A stretch of 64,000 bases of DNA from Escherichia phage p000y. The stretch lies in sequence record MK047718.1; one strand, 5' to 3'. Both the position numbers and the translations under genes were made by a program. The notes under the pieces were generated by a model. That model was not told where the DNA came from. It saw only the letters and a program-made list of their open reading frames with translations, and did not search any database. This document shows, piece after piece, positions 1 to 64,000 of this stretch. How positions within the stretch are numbered: the stretch's first letter is position 1; each line of letters starts with the position of its first letter.

Positions 1-1397
1 GCCATAACGTAATTGTTAACTGGTGTGATATTATTCCTGACTTTGGTTCATGGTCTTGGAATGTTAACGCAATCTATGTTAAGGGTGATGAATGTCGATA
101 TAATTTCGATGGTGAAAATATCACTAACGTAGGTTCAACAGGTGGTAATGTTGTAGGAATTTATCAGTTCAAAGACTGGGAATTCTACATGGGTTCTACT
201 GATGAGGAAATTCACGAATACTGCAAAGGTCGTGATTTCGTAGAATTCCTTTACGGCAGTGCATTCAATAAATCAGAGCTTATGAATCTAATTGATTTAG
301 GTGATATGCCTAAACTTGAAAAGGCTCATGAAGTTCGTGAACTGAATCGTAGTTTTAATGCAGTTGAAATTGGCGAAGAAACTGTAACTAAATTCGCGTT
401 AACCGAACAAGGTCGAGCTCTTCAAAAAGATGAGATTTCATGGTATTTGAAAGTGAAATCAGATTCAGTTCCTCAGTTAGTTTCGGTAAATGAAAATAAT
501 TTTGAAATGGAACGTATTAAAGGTAAGCCGGCATTTGAATATATTAAATCCAAATCAAGTCTTGCTCGTCCACAAATTGTTGATGCAATTTTAGATGCAC
601 TGAAATTCAGCACGGACACTTATTTTGTAAGTCCTGAAACTGTTCGCCGTGATTTCACTAAAGAGTTCTATACGAAAGTTATTGATCGTTGTGAAAGCAT
701 TCAGCCATTGATTGATTCATTTGGTAAAATCACACACGTGAACTACACTAAAATTGGACGTCTGAAGCCAATGTTGAAACAAGCTTTAGAACATCTTATT
801 CGTTATCATAACCGTTCTCAGGGACAGTACTCTGTTATTCATGGTGACCCGAACTTCAGTAATACTATGATTACCGATAACGGCGAAGTCAAGTTTATCG
901 ACCCTCGTGGATATTTTGGTGAAACCAAGATTTACGGGCCAAAATTATATGATGAAGCTAAAGTGCTTTATGCTGTTTCAGGTTATGATGAATTCAATGC
1001 TAATCCGACCTGGGGACAGTTTACTATTGATGAAACAACTTGTAATGTGACTATTAACATCAATCCATTAGTTTACAAATATGGAAAGATGAGTTCGTTT
1101 AACGAGTATCATCATTTGGCTGTAGCAATTATCTGGATTGCATTAGGTGGTTATTTCAAGAATAATCCACTTAAAGCGGTTGCCGCATATTATAAAGGTA
1201 TGGAACTTCTGACTAAGCAATTACGTAACATGGGCCGTGTACTTCAAGACGGCTCTATTAGTTATGACGTAGCAGAACCTGTAACGGCTACTCTGATTAC
1301 AAAAAATCCTGGTAAATGGGTACTAACTGATAAAGAAACTGGTGTTTCCTATCGTCCAATCGGCGGCGATATCACTCATCAATGGGAACGAATCTAA
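1..1397 (+). CDS. 5'-truncated fusion protein: C-terminal part of a LicC/MurU-like nucleotidyltransferase joined to an APH/choline-kinase-fold (LicA/AmgK-like) kinase
   Basis: Frame 3 is open from the window edge (HNVIVNWCDIIPDFGSW...GGNVVGIYQFKDWEFY) into tracked ORF 189-1397, so the first Met is not the real start. The kinase half has the HxDxxxxN signature (IHGDPNFSN) followed by Mg-binding FIDPRG. The NTase assignment of the N-terminal remnant is weak. Confidence 0.55.
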   Translation, partial: HNVIVNWCDIIPDFGSWSWNVNAIYVKGDECRYNFDGENITNVGSTGGNVVGIYQFKDWEFYMGSTDEEIHEYCKGRDFVEFLYGSAFNKSELMNLIDLGDMPKLEKAHEVRELNRSFNAVEIGEETVTKFALTEQGRALQKDEISWYLKVKSDSVPQLVSVNENNFEMERIKGKPAFEYIKSKSSLARPQIVDAILDALKFSTDTYFVSPETVRRDFTKEFYTKVIDRCESIQPLIDSFGKITHVNYTKIGRLKPMLKQALEHLIRYHNRSQGQYSVIHGDPNFSNTMITDNGEVKFIDPRGYFGETKIYGPKLYDEAKVLYAVSGYDEFNANPTWGQFTIDETTCNVTININPLVYKYGKMSSFNEYHHLAVAIIWIALGGYFKNNPLKAVAAYYKGMELLTKQLRNMGRVLQDGSISYDVAEPVTATLITKNPGKWVLTDKETGVSYRPIGGDITHQWERI

Positions 1398-1829: not shown

Positions 1830-2999
1830 ATGCAAAAAATGAATACTTTTAAAATCGGAACGAATTTTGATTTAGCTCTTCTTGATAAAATCGTAGAGCT
1901 CAATAAAACCTATCCTAATAGCTTGATAAACGAAGTATATGGCTCTACAAGAGAAATGGCTTTTGTAGCAGCCAGACCTGATTTTAGGCTTCCTGACGTT
2001 GACAAAAAGATGTTAGAAGACTACGTTAAACGTTGTAACGAATTAGGTATTTGCTTTAACTATACACTCAACACGATAAATCCTGGTTCAAAAAGAGAAC
2101 TAGTTGAGTGGAAGAAGAAAGCTATTCAGGATTATGTTCAGTATCTTTGGTCAATAGGCGTATGGCGTATTACTATCGCTAACCCTGTTGTTATGGAAAT
2201 TGTTCGTGAAGTCAATAAAGATATTGAGATTGAAGTTTCAACAATTCTACATGTCGATGCGGTAACTCAAATCAAATACTTACATGACCAATATAACATC
2301 AAAAAGGTCTGTTGCGGAATTCATAAGAACCGTTCAGTTTCTTTCCTGAAGCGTGCAGCAGAGTTTTGCAATAAGAACAATATAATATTTGAAGTTCTTG
2401 TAAATGAGTTCTGTTCTAATGCTGGTAAAGGGTATACAACACATTGTAGTTATCGTGACTCTTGCTATATTTTCCATAGTACTGATGTTACCGCTGATGA
2501 TGCTAAATCCTTAAATGGATATCCTATGCAGCACTGTATTAAAGCTCGTGATACAGACCCATTTAACTGGTTGAGAACTCGTTTTGTTCGTCCTCAAGAT
2601 TTGAAACTTTATAATGATATTGGTATCACTCAATTCAAAGTTTCAGGACGTACAGGTAGCACAGACTACATTTTGAAAGTTCTTGAAGCATACGCTTCTG
2701 AAAAGTTTGAAGGTAATTTGTTAGAACTGTGGAAGCCTTTAGAGACTATTTTCACTCTTGAAAATGAGACTGAGTTTTCACATACAGTAAATATTGAAAC
2801 CTCTTTGTTAGATGGCTTTTTAGAAAAAAGGTGGTTCAGACATCCAGATTTTGATTGTGCTAATGAAATCTGTGGGTCAACGTGTACATATTGTGAAAGG
2901 TATTATAAACGTCAATTATCTAAAAACGGGTTAGCAGAAAACTCCATATCTATTATTGATATAACTAACTCTGATGACGCTTTGAGGTACCCGGAATGA
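1830..2999 (+). CDS. peptidase-U32-family protein (TIM-barrel, Cys-rich / Fe-S type)
   Basis: 389 aa with a UbiU/YhbU-like layout. N-terminal FKIGTNFDLALLDKIVEL, CFNYTLNT, central Cys cluster EFCSNAGKGYTTHCSYRDSC...HC, and ITQFKVSGRTGSTDYILKVLEAY (compare the family KIEGR segment). Extra C-terminal CANEICGSTCTYC cluster. Confidence 0.6.
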   Translation: MQKMNTFKIGTNFDLALLDKIVELNKTYPNSLINEVYGSTREMAFVAARPDFRLPDVDKKMLEDYVKRCNELGICFNYTLNTINPGSKRELVEWKKKAIQDYVQYLWSIGVWRITIANPVVMEIVREVNKDIEIEVSTILHVDAVTQIKYLHDQYNIKKVCCGIHKNRSVSFLKRAAEFCNKNNIIFEVLVNEFCSNAGKGYTTHCSYRDSCYIFHSTDVTADDAKSLNGYPMQHCIKARDTDPFNWLRTRFVRPQDLKLYNDIGITQFKVSGRTGSTDYILKVLEAYASEKFEGNLLELWKPLETIFTLENETEFSHTVNIETSLLDGFLEKRWFRHPDFDCANEICGSTCTYCERYYKRQLSKNGLAENSISIIDITNSDDALRYPE

Positions 3000-3235
3000 T
3001 TTCTAGAAAAAGTTTTAATTATAAACTTAACGAAGAGATTTTGACTATGAAACTGAACACTAACGAACAAATTCTTAAAAAGGCCCTTATGGGCCTGTTT
3101 GAAACCAAAGCGGCTAAAGTGATTAAAGAACCTGTTCAATTGGAATACTACACTGATGCATTCCTTCATAGTGTTCTTGGAAGTATAGATTCTGAAGCTT
3201 TACGTTATATCAACATTGTCAAGAAATTCAAATAA
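2996..3235 (+). CDS. hypothetical protein (79 aa)
   Basis: ATGA overlap with the U32 stop suggests translational coupling. No recognisable family. Confidence 0.5.
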   Translation: MISRKSFNYKLNEEILTMKLNTNEQILKKALMGLFETKAAKVIKEPVQLEYYTDAFLHSVLGSIDSEALRYINIVKKFK

Positions 3236-3277: not shown

Positions 3278-3994
3278 ATGGGAAAACATAACACAATGAA
3301 ATATATCAAAGCCGCAGATTTTCAAACCGCATTTAAAGCAGTCAATCGTGAAATTTTAGAAAACCCGGAATTCGTAACTGATTCTCGTATTGGACGTTGT
3401 AATGAAATTGGGTCTATGACAGTAGTTGTTGACACTCCATCATCATTCAAAATGACCGACCCACGTATTAACCGCATCTCTTATGAATATGCCGAAGACT
3501 TCTGGAAGTTTATGATTTCTGGTGGTACCAACGCAGAAGAAGCGTTTAAGGCATATCCTAATGTCGCTAAATTTATTTCTAAACCAAAATCAGATGTTTT
3601 GCCGGCGAACTTCAACACTTTCTATGGTCCTCGCATTGCGGCCCAATTACCAACTCTTCTAAAAGAACTTAAAGAAAAACCTAACTCTCGAAGAGTTGTG
3701 TTCCAAATTCTAGAAAGTTCTGATCAGGCTTTGCTTGATTCGGACGAAACACTTGAATATCCATGTACTGACTCAGTAACTTATTATATTCGTGATGGTA
3801 AGCTTTATACCCACTGTCATATGCGTTCTCAGAACTGTGCTGTTGTTATGCAGTTGGATTTTTATCTCCAAGGAAAATTACTTCATTATATCGCTAACGA
3901 ATGCGGTGTAGAAGTTGGTGATTATACTCATACCATGGTAAGTGCCCATGTGTTTGAACGTGATTTTGATTATGTTAAAGGATTCCTTGACTAA
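3278..3994 (+). CDS. thymidylate-synthase-fold deoxycytidylate hydroxymethylase-like enzyme (gene 42 position, divergent from T4 gp42)
   Basis: TS-family blocks NSRRVVFQI, catalytic Cys in EYPCTDSVTYYIRDGKL, HMRSQNCAVVMQLDFY with Asp where true TS has Asn. GAGG SD lies 8 nt upstream and a MotA-box promoter sits at 3235-3258. Confidence 0.7.
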   Translation: MGKHNTMKYIKAADFQTAFKAVNREILENPEFVTDSRIGRCNEIGSMTVVVDTPSSFKMTDPRINRISYEYAEDFWKFMISGGTNAEEAFKAYPNVAKFISKPKSDVLPANFNTFYGPRIAAQLPTLLKELKEKPNSRRVVFQILESSDQALLDSDETLEYPCTDSVTYYIRDGKLYTHCHMRSQNCAVVMQLDFYLQGKLLHYIANECGVEVGDYTHTMVSAHVFERDFDYVKGFLD

Positions 3995-4893
3995 TGGCTA
4001 TTTTCCGCGTACCAATCTTGAGTATGCGGTCTTATGAAACTGGACAGTATGCTATCCTTAAGGATGGCAACTTCCAACTTCATTTGCACCGTGCTAATCC
4101 GGGTGATGTGATTACATATCCACGTAATGCATCTGATATTAAAGAATGCGAACGTCTTTTCCCAGAATTTAAGTTTGTTCCATTATGGTATAAAGATAAC
4201 GCGTATAACACTCGTAAATATTTCTGGACTGAAAATGAATTTGTGGTTGATTCATTAATTGATTATTATGATTGTGATTTTCTAATCACAGATATCACTG
4301 GTTATGGCGGCGCTTTTGATGTGGAATTCAATTTCAATATCACTGCAGACCCTAATAAACCACGTTTTTATATTGATGAATTCTTAAAAACCGACATGTT
4401 GTCTGTTAATCGTTCACTTCAAACTACTGTGTTGAATGAACGTCAAAAAGAAGTGCTGGTTAACGCAGGTGCAGATGGTAATAAGATTATCGTAACGCAG
4501 AAAGTTATACGTCCTTCCATCATGCAGCGTCTTGTAGGTGATTTGGCTCCTATTCATCTAGATGGTATTTTTCATCCATTTCGAATTAGTGACCCATGTT
4601 ATCGTTTTGAACAAGTGGTTGAATGTGCAATTCAATTAGGTCAACCGCTTTATATAACCGATCCAAATAATAGCTTCGACAGAAATAAGTATCCTGAAGA
4701 AGCGCTGATTCGAATTTTTAAACCAACTAAAACTGAGTACTATCAAATTCTTAAAGGACGTCCGAAAATTCAATATTTCGAAAATCCTGAAGAAGTATTC
4801 CATCCAGGTCTTGGTGAGTTCATCTACTTTAATGCTTTAATTTCTTCGCCGTATAATATACCTAAATACGAAGATGTCGTAATCGAGGAATAA
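3994..4893 (+). CDS. hypothetical 299-aa protein in the T4 beta-glucosyltransferase slot; candidate DNA sugar transferase
   Basis: TAATG-coupled to the hydroxymethylase-like gene and lying between it and uvsX, where T4 has beta-gt. No motif I can assign firmly (HPFRISDP, FHPGLGEF). The function is inferred from position only. Confidence 0.45.
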   Translation: MAIFRVPILSMRSYETGQYAILKDGNFQLHLHRANPGDVITYPRNASDIKECERLFPEFKFVPLWYKDNAYNTRKYFWTENEFVVDSLIDYYDCDFLITDITGYGGAFDVEFNFNITADPNKPRFYIDEFLKTDMLSVNRSLQTTVLNERQKEVLVNAGADGNKIIVTQKVIRPSIMQRLVGDLAPIHLDGIFHPFRISDPCYRFEQVVECAIQLGQPLYITDPNNSFDRNKYPEEALIRIFKPTKTEYYQILKGRPKIQYFENPEEVFHPGLGEFIYFNALISSPYNIPKYEDVVIEE

Positions 4894-4894
4894 A

Positions 4895-5443
4895 ATGGCT
4901 AAAATTATTTTAGTAGATGGCCCGGATAATGCTGGTAAAACAACTTTCATTAATGACATAATGGAAATTAGTGAAAGATATGTAAAGATTGATTTCCCTA
5001 AACGAACAGTTGATGGACGTTTCGATGTTAAGTCTCGAAATGAAGTTGGCTGTTTCGAAACGATGTTGAATTATTTAGACCCTACTAAGATTTATCTGTT
5101 AGACCGTGGATATATTAGTAACTGGGTTTATGGACGTATTCGACAAGATGCGGACTCGATTCTTGACGTTTATGAACAGGACTATGTTCGTCTTTGCCAA
5201 AACCATGATGTGTTCACAATTATTTTAACACGTAACGAAATGACTGAAAGTTTTGAAGACGACCTTATTACTTTGTCTTCATTCGGTTTTAATACAGTCA
5301 TTTCACATTTTGAAGAGTTTGCAATTCATAACAAAATCCAAACGTATCAATTACTTAATCATGATGGTGCTAACAAAGTTATAGGATTTAATGCAAGCGA
5401 ACGTAATTATTTGATTACAGAAATTATCAAATGGGCTCGTTAA
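4895..5443 (+). CDS. P-loop thymidylate-kinase-like (d)NMP kinase
   Basis: Walker A GPDNAGKTT near the N-terminus and a TMK-like DR[YH] motif (DRGYISNWVYG). 182 aa. Unlike T4 gp1. Confidence 0.6.
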   Translation: MAKIILVDGPDNAGKTTFINDIMEISERYVKIDFPKRTVDGRFDVKSRNEVGCFETMLNYLDPTKIYLLDRGYISNWVYGRIRQDADSILDVYEQDYVRLCQNHDVFTIILTRNEMTESFEDDLITLSSFGFNTVISHFEEFAIHNKIQTYQLLNHDGANKVIGFNASERNYLITEIIKWAR

Positions 5444-10334: not shown

Positions 10335-10628
10335 ATGAAAAAGTTATCATTGGCAGCAATCTTACTTGCAGTATCATGTGCACCGGCTCCAGTTACGGCA
10401 GGTTATGATAAAGACCTCTGTGAGTGGTCAATGACTGCAAATCAAGAAGATGTTGAACAACAAATCTTCTCTGATATCATGAACATCACTAAACGAGACC
10501 GTCCTAATATGGTTAATAAAGTTGTTGAACAACTTAAGTCTGGTGGTATCATGCAGTACAACTATGTTTTGTATTGTGACCCTAATTTCGATAACAAAGA
10601 TATCGTAACCGAAATCACAGGTGAATAA
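10335..10628 (+). CDS. sp: Spackle periplasmic inhibitor of tail lysozyme (superinfection exclusion)
   Basis: 97 aa. Signal peptide followed by GYDKDLCEWSMTA...MQYNYVLYCD closely matches T4 Sp (gp61.3). Confidence 0.9.
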   Translation: MKKLSLAAILLAVSCAPAPVTAGYDKDLCEWSMTANQEDVEQQIFSDIMNITKRDRPNMVNKVVEQLKSGGIMQYNYVLYCDPNFDNKDIVTEITGE

Positions 10629-10629
10629 T

Positions 10630-11280
10630 ATGATTTATTATATGCACAAAAACGCACCATTTAAATATGGTAAATTTCCTAATGCACAATGTTATAATAT
10701 AACGCCGAACGAAAATAATAACGGATATCATATTGGTGTAATTTTTGTAATTGTTAAAGATAACGAAATCATTGCCTGGGCCGATTTTAAAGGTACAACA
10801 TATGATGTTAATCCTGTGCCTTTCACATATTACAATATAATGGATTTGGCATATGATTATAATTGGTTTAATCATGACACGTTGGCTCATATTGAAGGTG
10901 TAGGATTTGACATCTCTTATTCTAGCTATTCATTATGTCCTATGAGCCGAGCTCACGGTAAAGATGTATCATATCTTTCAATTCGGAAACGTGTAAACTT
11001 CAAACGTAGTACAGAGTATGTTGGTGGACTCTTTGTTAAAGATAATAAAATAACCCGTATTAGTTATCCTTTAAGTGTAGGTCAAAAAGATGTTGACGTT
11101 GATTTGGACTTAACTGAAAATAACATTAATCGTATTGCTTCTGTATATTTTGATATCGATGAAAAAATTGTAGTGTGTGGATACGAATTACCACCTGAAG
11201 AAAAGGCTGAAGCAATTGAAGTCGAATTAGAAATTTCTGTTGATGACCAAATATTTAATGCATTTATGAATCGAGGTTAA
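10630..11280 (+). CDS. gp61.2-like protein (T4 61.2 position)
   Basis: 216 aa directly after sp, as T4 61.2. I prefer ATG 10630 (AGGTG SD) over the tracked GTG 10621. Confidence 0.6.
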   Translation: MIYYMHKNAPFKYGKFPNAQCYNITPNENNNGYHIGVIFVIVKDNEIIAWADFKGTTYDVNPVPFTYYNIMDLAYDYNWFNHDTLAHIEGVGFDISYSSYSLCPMSRAHGKDVSYLSIRKRVNFKRSTEYVGGLFVKDNKITRISYPLSVGQKDVDVDLDLTENNINRIASVYFDIDEKIVVCGYELPPEEKAEAIEVELEISVDDQIFNAFMNRG

Positions 11281-62379: not shown

Positions 62380-62408
62380 TTTACAACATGGTGGAGTTGT
62401 GATACTAT
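62380..62408 (+). promoter_or_regulatory. early promoter
   Basis: TTTACA 62380-62385, 17 nt, TACTAT 62403-62408. Confidence 0.6.
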
Positions 62409-62436: not shown

Positions 62437-62673
62437 ATGCTAAGTGAAAACCCAATTACAGTACACGAATTTCAGATTAAAGTAAAAGAATTTGCTCAAG
62501 CACTCATCAATAAAGTGTCTGAACGTTTCCAAGATGCAACATTACGAGTTATTCAAGAATCTCCACGTTCTTTTCTCATAATCGTTAATCCTAAAGATGG
62601 TGACCAAATTACTAATCTTAAATTAGGCAGTGATGGTCTTGTTGAAGCAACTCGAGTATATGGAACACTATAA
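62437..62673 (+). CDS. hypothetical protein (78 aa)
   Basis: Early promoter at 62380-62408 and GAGGAA SD. Confidence 0.55.
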   Translation: MLSENPITVHEFQIKVKEFAQALINKVSERFQDATLRVIQESPRSFLIIVNPKDGDQITNLKLGSDGLVEATRVYGTL

Positions 62674-62793
62674 TGAGAGCTATCTCATTACTATCGAGAA
62701 TGGTCATAAATCTGAGCACTACCAACTTAGCCTGTCTAATCCGGTTAAAGGTATTGTTGAATCAGAATCTGTTTATATCTCCTAAGGATTGTT

Positions 62794-63786
62794 ATGTTAC
62801 CTGTCGTCGGAAAACTTATTTCTCCAAAAGAACTGGCTGAGATTATTCCTTTGTCGGAAGCTTACGCATCACAAGTGGCTTCTCATCGCGAACAAGTTAA
62901 TTCGATTATGAACGGTGAAGACCCACGCAAACTTATTGTTGTAGGTCCTTGTTCAATTCATGACCCTATTGCTGCTGTTGAATACGGCAAACGTCTGGCT
63001 GAACTTCAAACTCGTCTTCCTAATGTTCTGTTAGTGATGCGCGTTTATTTTGAAAAGCCTCGAACTACCGTAGGTTGGAAAGGTCTTGTAAATGATCCAT
63101 ATCTTGACGGAAGTTTTGATATGAACCACGGTCTTATAGTTGCACGAACATTGTGTCGTAAACTTCTACGTATGGGACTTCCATTAGCAACTGAAGTATT
63201 AGACCCATTCACGATTAAGTATCTTTCTGGTATTTTCTCATGGGTTGCTATTGGCGCCCGTACGACTGAAAGTCAGACACATCGTGAAATTGCTTCAGGT
63301 CTACCGATGTGCGTAGGCTTCAAGAACGCAACCAATGGTTCTATTAAAGTAGCTACAGACGCGATGTATAGCGCCGCCTGGCCTCATCGGTATATGGGTA
63401 TGGACGTCGATGGTACTGTAGGCATTGTTGAAGCTGAAGGTAATCAGAATACGCATATCGTATTGCGTGGCGGGACCAACGGCCCGAACTATCATTCTTC
63501 TGATATTCAAGAAGCTTCTAACAAAGCAAGTGCAGTAGGTCTGAATCATTATGTAATGGTTGACTGTAGCCATGCAAACGCTGCTGGGCATTATAGCAAT
63601 CAAATTGGTATTGGTAAAAATTTAGCAGCTAATGATTTGGTCAAAGGAATTATGATAGAATCATTCCTACATGAAGGAAATCAAAAAATTTCTGATAATA
63701 TGTCCTATGGCGTTTCCGTTACCGATGCGTGCATCAGTTGGGAACAAACTAAAGAGCTGTTAACTTATATTAATAAGGTTCAATAA
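62794..63786 (+). CDS. 3-deoxy-D-arabino-heptulosonate-7-phosphate (DAHP) synthase, class I-alpha (AroF/G/H-like)
   Basis: 330 aa colinear with E. coli AroG. LIVVGPCSIHD, MRVYFEKPRTTVGWKGL.NDP, IGARTTESQ.HRE.ASGL, VGFKN, ILRGG, DCSHAN, MIESFLHEGNQ, SVTDACISWE. AAGGA SD. Confidence 0.9.
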   Translation: MLPVVGKLISPKELAEIIPLSEAYASQVASHREQVNSIMNGEDPRKLIVVGPCSIHDPIAAVEYGKRLAELQTRLPNVLLVMRVYFEKPRTTVGWKGLVNDPYLDGSFDMNHGLIVARTLCRKLLRMGLPLATEVLDPFTIKYLSGIFSWVAIGARTTESQTHREIASGLPMCVGFKNATNGSIKVATDAMYSAAWPHRYMGMDVDGTVGIVEAEGNQNTHIVLRGGTNGPNYHSSDIQEASNKASAVGLNHYVMVDCSHANAAGHYSNQIGIGKNLAANDLVKGIMIESFLHEGNQKISDNMSYGVSVTDACISWEQTKELLTYINKVQ

Positions 63787-64000
63787 TGAAAGCTAGCACA
63801 TATCTTCAAATTGCTTATTTGATTTCTCAAGAATCAAAATGTTGTTCATGGAAAGTTGGTGCCGTCATTGAAAAAGATGGACGCATTATTTCTACAGGTT
63901 ATAATGGCTCTCCTTCAGGTGGTACAAACTGTTGCGAACATGCATCCGAAAACGGTTGGTTGAAGAATAAACCAAGCCCGGTCATCGTTGCTGGGCATAA
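63786..64000 (+). CDS. cd: dCMP deaminase (3'-truncated by the window edge)
   Basis: TAATG overlap at 63786. MKASTYLQIAYLISQESKCCSWKVGAVIEKDGRIISTGYNGSP.GG.NCC matches the T4 Cd N-terminus. Confidence 0.9.
   Translation, partial: MKASTYLQIAYLISQESKCCSWKVGAVIEKDGRIISTGYNGSPSGGTNCCEHASENGWLKNKPSPVIVAGH

Follow-up and report, generated by a model that had tools for sequence, protein, structure and literature searches.

DAHP synthase (DAHPS; DAHP is the 7-phosphate of 3-deoxy-D-arabino-heptulosonate) governs carbon entry into the shikimate pathway, making DAHP from phosphoenolpyruvate (PEP) and erythrose-4-phosphate (E4P), and its N-terminal segment takes part in feedback inhibition. The host isozymes AroF, AroG and AroH are feedback-inhibited and repressed (TyrR/TrpR) in rich or gut conditions. 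Prephenate is the product of chorismate mutase (CM). In bacteria, prephenate is the oxygen donor of an O2-independent hydroxylation that depends on the U32 proteins UbiU/V (PMC10990095), it is required for the formation of 5-hydroxycytidine in 23S rRNA by RlhA (PMC5727448), and it serves one side of a dual pathway to 5-hydroxyuridine (ho5U), in which TrhP (U32, prephenate) stands beside TrhO (O2) (PMC6599085). The DNA of phage RB69 carries arabinosylated 5-hydroxycytosine (Lee et al., PMC13326640). In that phage, gp48 makes 5-hydroxy-dCMP (5hodCMP; dCMP, deoxycytidine monophosphate) with flavin, the oxygen coming from 18O2, and a large supply of ribulose-5-phosphate-derived arabinose is needed (PMC13326640). 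We analyzed a 64,000-nucleotide stretch of Escherichia phage p000y (MK047718.1; hereafter the window), in which the gene at 62794..63786 encodes a DAHPS and the arabinosyl-5-hydroxycytosine cluster, with its U32-family protein, lies ~60 kb away in the first kilobases. U32 enzymes hydroxylate independently of O2 and depend on prephenate, and this gene is therefore best explained by a deregulated prephenate supply: with a probability of roughly 0.55, the window DAHPS would supply prephenate to the U32 protein for O2-independent hydroxylation of cytosine at C5, rather than aromatic amino acids.

The gene runs from an ATG at 62794 to a TAA at 63784-63786, an unbroken frame of 330 codons with a 330-aa product, and its stop shares the last A with the ATG (63786-63788) of the next open reading frame (ORF), giving TAATG. 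That ORF begins MKASTYLQIAYLISQESKCCSWKVG (the same start is also given as MKASTYLQIAYLISQESKCC) and is annotated as dCMP deaminase in close relatives.

62794..63786, plus strand: phage type I-alpha DAHP synthase (PHROG 5045), core intact, N-terminus shortened, regulatory-site residues replaced.
63786..64000, plus strand: 5' part of cd (dCMP deaminase), its ATG overlapping the DAHPS stop; the gene continues past the end of the window.

Assignment to the type I-alpha DAHP synthases is secure. The product matches Pfam DAHP_synth_1 (PF00793; E=7e-75, 251.8 bits, cutoff 25.5), NCBIfam TIGR00034 aroFGH (427 bits, cutoff 173.2) and PRK12755 (454.8 bits, cutoff 343). With the AroG-specific NCBIfam equivalog and the AroH-specific model it stays under the cutoffs (364 bits against 568 and 384.8 against 463, respectively), which we count toward a loss of feedback control. 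In the PDB, E. coli AroF matches best (6AGM, 353 bits), followed by AroG (1KFL/1QR7, 310 bits), and the identity to E. coli AroF, AroG and AroH is 51, 47 and 43%. An activity like that of 3-deoxy-D-manno-octulosonate 8-phosphate (KDO8P) synthase was ruled out, as DAHPS models score far above KDO8PS models; the KPRT motif is also of the DAHPS type and not the KDO8PS type.

We aligned the window DAHPS with E. coli AroF/G/H, six orthologues from further phage genera and the top 120 homologues in the database, and compared 26 phage-clade sequences (the window and 25 others) with the 96 nearest cellular homologues, using AroG numbering. The thirteen AroG residues that contact metal, PEP or E4P (C61, R92, K97, R99, T100, G163, A164, R165, K186, R234, H268, E302 and D326) are invariant in 26/26 phage-clade sequences, among which pairwise identity falls as low as 44%. 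These comprise the metal ligands C61, H268, E302 and D326, and the PEP/E4P residues R92, K97, R99 and T100 (KPRT), G163-A164-R165, K186 and R234, all kept in the window DAHPS. The enzyme thus shares with E. coli AroF, AroG and AroH (6AGM, 1KFL) the fold family, the length class, the metal and PEP/E4P residues and the beta6a/6b segment, and we infer that it is catalytically competent.

In contrast, the regulatory site differs. The window DAHPS has 330 residues against 350 in AroG, and is missing ~8 residues at the very N-terminus, a segment that takes part in the inhibitor site: GPCS is preceded by 50 residues rather than 58, and AroG residues 2-9 find no counterpart. Across the phage clade, 46-50 residues precede GPCS, compared with 56-93 in the 96 cellular homologues. 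A polar pair at AroG positions 6/7 ([DENQ][ND] in 96/96 cellular sequences) is deleted in the phage clade together with the rest of the D6/D7/I10 region of the inhibitor site, so that equivalents of AroG D6/D7 and AroF N8 are gone. The remaining inhibitor-site residues, P150, Q151, S180 and F209, are 93-100% conserved across the cellular set, and each is replaced in the phage clade: position 150 (P in 89/96) by I, position 151 (Q in 96/96) by K or R, position 180 (S in 95/96) by P and position 209 (F in 95/96) by Y. The window enzyme reads P150I, Q151K, S180P, P182C and F209Y at these near-invariant cellular positions. Published feedback-resistance mutations include AroG P150L and S180F and AroF N8K and Q152I (PMC11843938). 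Compared with the engineered set of AroG P150L, S180F and D146N and AroF N8K, P148L and Q152I, the phage enzyme is altered at four positions (150, 180, the AroF-152 equivalent and the deleted AroF-8 region). Its changes are natural, are fixed in at least seven phage genera and bring in Ile, Pro and Lys instead, whereas D146 and AroF-P148 are unaltered; its feedback resistance is predicted from sequence. The window DAHPS is likely no longer inhibited by aromatic amino acids.

Much of this had been anticipated by a sequence-only reading of the window. It described a near full-length DAHP synthase with six motifs (GPCSIHD, KPRTTVGWKG, GARTTESQ, DCSHAN, IESFL and TDAC), all of which are found in the translation, and a TAATG coupling to dCMP deaminase, which agrees with the stop/start overlap and with the cd annotation in relatives. 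Its estimate of an N-terminus about 10 residues short of AroG matches the 50 versus 58 residues before GPCS. Its label 'AroG-type' holds for the type I-alpha family; the nearer isozyme is AroF. It also raised a possible escape from feedback, and the alignment with AroF/G/H, with regulatory-site residues deleted or replaced and the 13 catalytic residues kept, points the same way.

The proposed prephenate user is encoded at the other end of the window, two genes upstream of the gene for 5-hydroxy-dCMP synthase.

189..1397, plus strand: arabinose-activating enzyme, C-terminal kinase-like part (RB69 gp52:53 / AfhE-like); weak kinase Pfam matches, position as in RB69 (PMC13326640).
1830..2999, plus strand: U32-family protein, 389 aa, RB69 gp50 orthologue and proposed prephenate user (PF01136, 42.2 bits, cutoff 22.4).
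2996..3235, plus strand: 79-aa ORF, RB69 ORF049c orthologue, overlapping the U32 stop (ATGA), in the CM slot of other genera; a relation to CM is not detectable.
3278..3994, plus strand: thymidylate-synthase homologue, orthologue of the RB69 gp48 5-hydroxy-dCMP synthase (98.7% identity to RB69 ORF048c).
3994..4893 and 4895..5443, plus strand: putative arabinosyltransferase 1 and nucleotide kinase (RB69 gp46:47 and gp45 positions), assigned by position only (PMC13326640).

A profile of 18 phage U32 sequences aligned with E. coli UbiU/UbiV/RlhA/TrhP at an hhalign probability of 95.5%. In this alignment, E188, C206 and C212 of the window protein pair with the essential TrhP residues E162, C170 and C177, and they are invariant in the 18 homologues; plain MAFFT alignment with the E. 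coli U32 proteins misplaced this motif, whereas profile-profile alignment placed it. Ten Cys residues are invariant in these 18 diverse homologues, including those of a C-terminal CX4CX3CX2C motif. The phage proteins are a distinct subfamily, ~14-24% identical to RlhA, TrhP and UbiU/V, which carries this C-terminal motif and is missing the long C-terminal region of RlhA, and PDB searches by sequence and by profile gave no match. The arrangement resembles the bacterial dual systems (UbiI/H/F and UbiU/V, TrhO and TrhP, and RlhA) in that an O2-dependent flavin hydroxylase and a U32 protein occur side by side, and the phages likewise combine the U32-motif Glu and two Cys with prephenate-making genes and facultatively anaerobic hosts. 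Unlike the bacterial systems, the phage protein would act on a deoxynucleotide or DNA rather than on RNA or a quinone, and the phage brings its own DAHPS, predicted to be deregulated, and usually its own CM.

That CM lies between U32 and the synthase. In Serratia phage LC53, a gene annotated 'chorismate mutase domain-containing protein' occupies this place (L019:6660-7004) and its product has a CM_2 domain (44.6 bits, cutoff 27). CM homologues fill the same slot in 54 records from about ten Straboviridae genera and are often translationally coupled to their neighbors; carriers include Winklervirus, Kagamiyamavirus, Kanagawavirus, Klebsiella Marfavirus, Yersinia Tegunavirus, and Morganella, Providencia, Pectobacterium, Shewanella and Proteus phages, and the slot is likewise filled at loci L020-L025 and L036-L049. 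The phage CMs keep equivalents of R11, R28, K39, E52, S84 and Q88 of E. coli CM, that is, all of its catalytic residues, and their profile matches solved AroQ mutases (1YBZ, E=1e-16). We considered whether the 79-aa ORF of the window is a diverged CM, and found this unsupported: it has no match by Pfam, BLASTP, hhalign (probability 0.1%) or a hidden Markov model (HMM) of the phage CMs. In several genera, homing endonuclease (seg-like) genes lie beside or inside the U32-CM-synthase block and also near pseT (L012:1106-1822, L023:1432-2115, L020:686-1324 and L022:424-1062), and mark these regions as recombination hot spots.

We then asked how these genes are distributed by tblastn against 50,697 phage records. 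Homologues of the 5hodCMP synthase were found in 342 records, U32 in 221 (all matches at least 81% identical), DAHPS in 212 (about 195 of them Straboviridae) and CM in 54. The co-occurrence pattern rests on genus and host counts, which are near-identical for DAHPS and U32, together with explicit checks of about 15 genomes; every checked DAHPS-bearing Straboviridae genome also has U32, beside an O2-dependent 5-hydroxy-dCMP synthase. Within Straboviridae, DAHPS and CM were found only in U32 carriers, and U32 only in phages with a 5hodCMP-synthase homologue. The pattern is therefore nested, the synthase containing U32 and U32 containing CM and DAHPS, which is what supply genes serving U32 would be expected to show. 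The 5-hydroxycytosine (5hoC) clusters of Acinetobacter phage Lazarus and Pseudomonas phage PspYZU05, whose hosts are aerobic, contain no U32 or CM, the cluster of Dhakavirus IME08 has neither, and the DAHPS search gave no phage-type match in Acinetobacter/Pseudomonas 5hoC phages or in Dhakavirus. Outside Straboviridae, Aeromonas phage HJ05 (79 kb) encodes an I-alpha-like DAHPS of 38% identity (L077:6257-7420).

U32 is also joined to shikimate genes in unrelated, uncultured phages. Metagenomes hold a large set of 48-58% identical U32 homologues, on contigs of other large phages with DnaE-type polymerases (loci L027-L033, L048 and L050-L073, from metagenomic and IMG/VR viral contigs). Their neighbors include dCMP deaminase, thymidylate kinase, uracil-DNA glycosylase, dUTPase/DCD, TAGT and other glycosyltransferases, GLF mutase and radical-SAM genes, and this widespread presence among deoxynucleotide and DNA-glycosylation genes suggests a general role for U32 in DNA base modification. 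Our IMG/VR scan returned 40 U32 loci, 32 of them non-T4-like, and in 7/32 of the latter U32 has a shikimate gene no more than about 1 kb away. The arrangements are as follows.

L029:9145-9891 and L048:9384-10127: bare type I-beta DAHPS core (248 aa, no regulatory domain), directly downstream of U32.
L059:8399-9430, L061:3-968, L062:7290-8354 and L064:8323-9384: fused DAHP_synth_1 and CM_2 (Pfam), just upstream of U32.
L066:11113-11439: CM_2 gene (Pfam), directly downstream of U32.

This convergence of different DAHPS subtypes and gene architectures on one U32 subfamily is the strongest evidence that DAHPS, CM and U32 work together. These enzymes, I-beta and either fused to CM_2 or bare, are like the bifunctional type I-beta DAHPS-chorismate mutases (PDB 5J6F, 3NVT and 2D8D), whereas the window DAHPS is I-alpha and unfused, and the CM of T4-like phages is a small gene ~60 kb off or, in this Mosigvirus, absent. 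A KDO8P-synthase-like activity was ruled out for the I-beta enzyme of L029 as well, by 237 bits with the DAHPS model PRK08673 against 63 bits with the KDO8PS model. At four of the metagenomic loci, an ORF of 326-338 aa with no Pfam match abuts or overlaps the U32 start (L030:5028-6032, L031:5022-6008, L032:5016-5996 and L033:2735-3751) and, by analogy with UbiU/UbiV, may encode a partner subunit of U32. The tie between prephenate supply and U32, already suggested in the sequence-only reading, has gained from these comparisons: most sister genera have a CM gene between U32 and the synthase; across T4-like genomes, DAHPS is present in at least seven Straboviridae genera and, like CM, was found only in those carrying U32; and unrelated phages place U32 next to DAHPS or CM.

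We propose the following mechanism. The window DAHPS would be expressed together with early nucleotide-metabolism genes (cd.2-DAHPS-cd) and would push carbon into the shikimate pathway of the host even in the presence of abundant Phe, Tyr and Trp; the host isozymes being inhibited or repressed, a feedback-insensitive phage DAHPS would lift that bottleneck. Chorismate and prephenate would rise, the conversion of one to the other being carried out by the phage CM in most sister genera and, in this Mosigvirus, by the mutase domains of host PheA/TyrA. Prephenate would then act as oxygen-donating co-substrate of the phage U32 protein, a predicted iron-sulfur enzyme, which would hydroxylate C5 of cytosine (in dCMP or a related nucleotide) without O2. 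This route would back up the flavin/O2-dependent gp48-type synthase, and arabinosyl-5-hydroxycytosine DNA could thus be made in the anoxic gut, where that synthase would fail. The demand is about 63,000 C per genome; with a burst of 100-200 this comes to 0.6-1.3e7 hydroxylations per infected cell, and the whole-cell content of aromatic amino acids is ~6e7 molecules. More tentatively, and at a little under even odds, we extend the proposal to T4-like and unrelated phages alike, which may hypermodify their DNA with a dedicated U32 iron-sulfur enzyme that hydroxylates pyrimidines at C5 without O2, fuelled by a host shikimate pathway that their own deregulated DAHPS and CM would reprogram. On this same wider reading, equally tentative, prephenate might be a stoichiometric oxygen donor of viral DNA synthesis, and U32 the anaerobic twin of the flavin/O2-dependent 5-hydroxy-dCMP synthase in enteric arabinosyl-5hoC phages. 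In the searchable full-text literature we found no link of U32, prephenate, CM or DAHPS to the DNA modification of these phages, with He et al. 2026 (Nat Chem Biol, HY126) and Mahler et al. 2025 (Cell Host Microbe) falling outside it and possibly discussing them; the terms U32, prephenate, chorismate and DAHP are absent from the text of PMC13326640.

Several observations weigh against prephenate supply as the purpose of the gene. The T4-like linkage of DAHPS to U32 is a phyletic pattern in one clade, with few independent events. Dhakaviruses infect E. coli and have a 5hodCMP synthase without U32, CM or DAHPS, so an anaerobic route is not obligatory for enteric 5hoC phages. RB69 and Yersinia Tegunavirus have U32 without DAHPS, and RB69 still makes fully modified laboratory DNA, which indicates that DAHPS is dispensable, at least aerobically. 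The CM HMM finds no chorismate mutase in the 64-kb window of this Mosigvirus, which must therefore rely on host PheA/TyrA for the prephenate step. In HJ05, neither U32 nor CM lies within 19 kb of the DAHPS gene and the U32 tblastn search, whose matches were all at least 80% identical, gave none in this phage, so a phage DAHPS can serve other ends. The rebuilt regulatory pocket could bind a different effector instead of none, and U32 could act on RNA or on sugar instead. In vitro reconstitution of U32 hydroxylase activity has never been achieved for any member of the family (PMC10990095), and Lee et al. tentatively label RB69 gp50 'sugar or heterocycle reductase', without discussion (PMC13326640).

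Three other explanations have to be weighed with these points. DAHPS might be a generic auxiliary metabolic gene (AMG) that raises Phe, Tyr and Trp for phage proteins, or chorismate-derived cofactors, with no tie to DNA modification. This was proposed for the Kanagawavirus copy in the sole discussion that we found in the searchable literature (PMC11845039), and it fits the PHROG 5045 category 'moron, auxiliary metabolic gene', the expectation that a deregulated first enzyme would raise every pathway branch, the presence of DAHPS without U32 in HJ05 and the fact that RB69 manages without the gene. However, protein demand is alike across T4-like phages, whereas Straboviridae DAHPS was found only in U32 lineages. 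The second shikimate-related gene is a monofunctional CM, which points to prephenate, and it sits between U32 and the cytosine hydroxylase; no Trp-branch enzyme, dehydratase or transaminase accompanies it in these phages; and in unrelated phages DAHPS or CM stands beside U32 within DNA-modification loci. We consider a generic role unlikely on these grounds.

Less probable again is that U32 modifies RNA, acting like TrhP or RlhA on tRNA U34 or rRNA C2501, with prephenate also going to CmoA (carboxy-SAM, cmo5U), and so tunes translation of phage mRNA. T4-like phages do encode their own tRNAs, the Glu and two Cys essential in TrhP are conserved in phage U32, and all U32 enzymes so far characterized on nucleic acids have RNA as their substrate and require prephenate (PMC5727448, PMC6599085). 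Against this, the phage proteins share just some 14-24% identity with RlhA, TrhP and UbiU/V and are without RlhA's long C-terminal region, several phage lineages always have U32 amid deoxynucleotide and DNA-modification genes, including 5hodCMP synthase and DNA polymerase, and Straboviridae U32 was found only alongside a 5hodCMP-synthase homologue. We give the least credence to a redirection of flux, in which use of E4P and PEP would pull the non-oxidative pentose-phosphate pathway toward pentose phosphates (ribulose-5-phosphate, and from it arabinose-5-phosphate and nucleotides), or in which the substrate itself would have shifted, for example to arabinose-5-phosphate. The large phage demand for ribulose-5-phosphate-derived arabinose (PMC13326640), the DAHP_synth_1 fold, which also covers KDO8P synthase, an arabinose-5-phosphate user, and the SIS-domain isomerase and sugar kinase near the L029 DAHPS would suit it. 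Yet every DAHPS-specific residue is kept, as is the KPRT motif for the phosphate of E4P, the DAHPS equivalog cutoff is passed and the L029 enzyme scores as a DAHPS (237 bits against 63 for KDO8PS); the CM and the DAHPS-CM fusions would go unexplained, and the arabinosyl-5hoC phages of Acinetobacter, Pseudomonas and Dhakavirus share the arabinose demand and have no DAHPS.

The locus itself indicates a long residence in phages. More than 100 genomes of Mosigvirus, the RB69-like T-even phages that infect E. coli and Shigella, match the region at 98-99.5% identity; in many of them the gene is annotated as phospho-2-dehydro-3-deoxyheptonate aldolase, and a DAHPS gene is annotated in about 200 phage genomes (phrog_5045). 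The existence of a phage DAHPS gene is thus already known; its context and the proposed role are new. DAHPS shows the features of a phage AMG, a host-type metabolic enzyme retained by purifying selection in a genuine phage genome: at least seven Straboviridae genera have it at a fixed locus in complete genomes, its catalytic residues are invariant, and its GC content at third codon positions (GC3) is 0.30, like that of neighboring phage genes. The slot between cd.2 and cd holds DAHPS in Mosigvirus, Kanagawavirus (Entb_45, PEi26), Kagamiyamavirus EcS1, Marfavirus PhiKpNIH-6, Winklervirus X20, Bragavirus PM2 and Gualtarvirus PSTRCR_127, sometimes with one or two small ORFs between DAHPS and cd; Yersinia Tegunavirus lacks the gene, and the cd region was not found in the examined stretch of Shewanella phage Thanatos-2. 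DAHPS resembles the T4-like nucleotide-pool genes (cd, td, frd, nrdAB, nrdDG) in operon context, coupling to cd and phage-like codon composition, and on the proposed role it would likewise serve the synthesis of DNA precursors, but it belongs to shikimate metabolism, and its link to DNA synthesis would be indirect, via a co-substrate. The phage sequences form one clade (neighbor-joining tree, no bootstrap), and the nearest cellular proteins, from Planctomycetota, Pontiella and Pseudomonadales together with enterobacterial AroF, reach no more than 55% identity. Recent capture from the host was ruled out by this low identity to cellular homologues, their scattered taxa, the monophyly of the phage clade and the phage-like GC3; by these measures, the window DAHPS belongs to an old phage lineage and is not a recent E. 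coli capture. The upstream side of the locus carries the following features.

62380..62408, plus strand: sigma-70/T4-early-like promoter candidate (TTTACA-17-TACTAT, extended TG), upstream of cd.2.
62437..62673, plus strand: cd.2 homologue, 78 aa, upstream of the DAHPS cassette.
62670..62682, plus strand: 13-nt direct repeat, left copy (ATAATGAGAGCTA), at the stop of cd.2.
62674..62793, plus strand: spacer of 120 nt in the cassette, ending in the ribosome-binding site AAGGA ahead of the DAHPS ATG.
63783..63795, plus strand: 13-nt direct repeat, right copy (ATAATGAAAGCTA), where DAHPS stops and cd starts.

The promoter candidate could drive cd.2-DAHPS-cd; a promoter/terminator scan of the region showed no excess over shuffled sequences. 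The spacer contains short unannotated ORFs, one of which (62673..62840) starts MRAIS, resembling the MKAST start of cd, and in Kanagawavirus, which has no spacer, cd.2 and DAHPS are separated by 10 nt. RB69 has no DAHPS, and its cd.2 stop is coupled straight to cd. In the alignment of the window with RB69, the repeat (consensus ATAATGA(G/A)AGCTA) is present there in single copy, and exactly 1113 bp between the copies are missing, consistent with a deletion between short direct repeats. The view that the gene was inserted upstream of cd, held in the sequence-only reading, is accurate relative to RB69. An insertion in the window phage was nevertheless re-read as a loss in RB69, as the same slot is filled in at least seven genera and the RB69 gap is bounded by the repeats; among U32-carrying relatives, the gene is ancestral. 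The RB69 cd (L002:4743-5252) is annotated with 169 aa compared to about 193 aa in close relatives (mobillu, 582 nt), which might reflect sequencing or annotation that differs at the 3' end. Elsewhere in the window, 10621..11280 holds a 219-aa ORF for a full-length AdfA anti-DarT factor (PF23813, E=9e-120); AdfA is a known counter-defense gene in T4-like phages.

Prephenate supply for O2-independent hydroxylation of a DNA base is a new and directly testable hypothesis. If it is true, a shikimate-pathway gene of phages would gain a concrete role in DNA synthesis in place of a vague designation as an amino-acid AMG, and the unexplained U32 gene (RB69 gp50) would acquire a function within a DNA-modification cluster that was characterized only in 2025-26. 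Prephenate-dependent hydroxylation in a high-flux and genetically simple phage system would lend itself to reconstituting U32 activity, and the clade of DAHP synthases predicted to be deregulated would be a source of feedback-insensitive enzymes for metabolic engineering. For the phages themselves, it would explain how those that replace all of their cytosine with a hydroxylated base derived from O2 can replicate in the anoxic gut, with a bearing on phage therapy that uses Mosigvirus and related phages.

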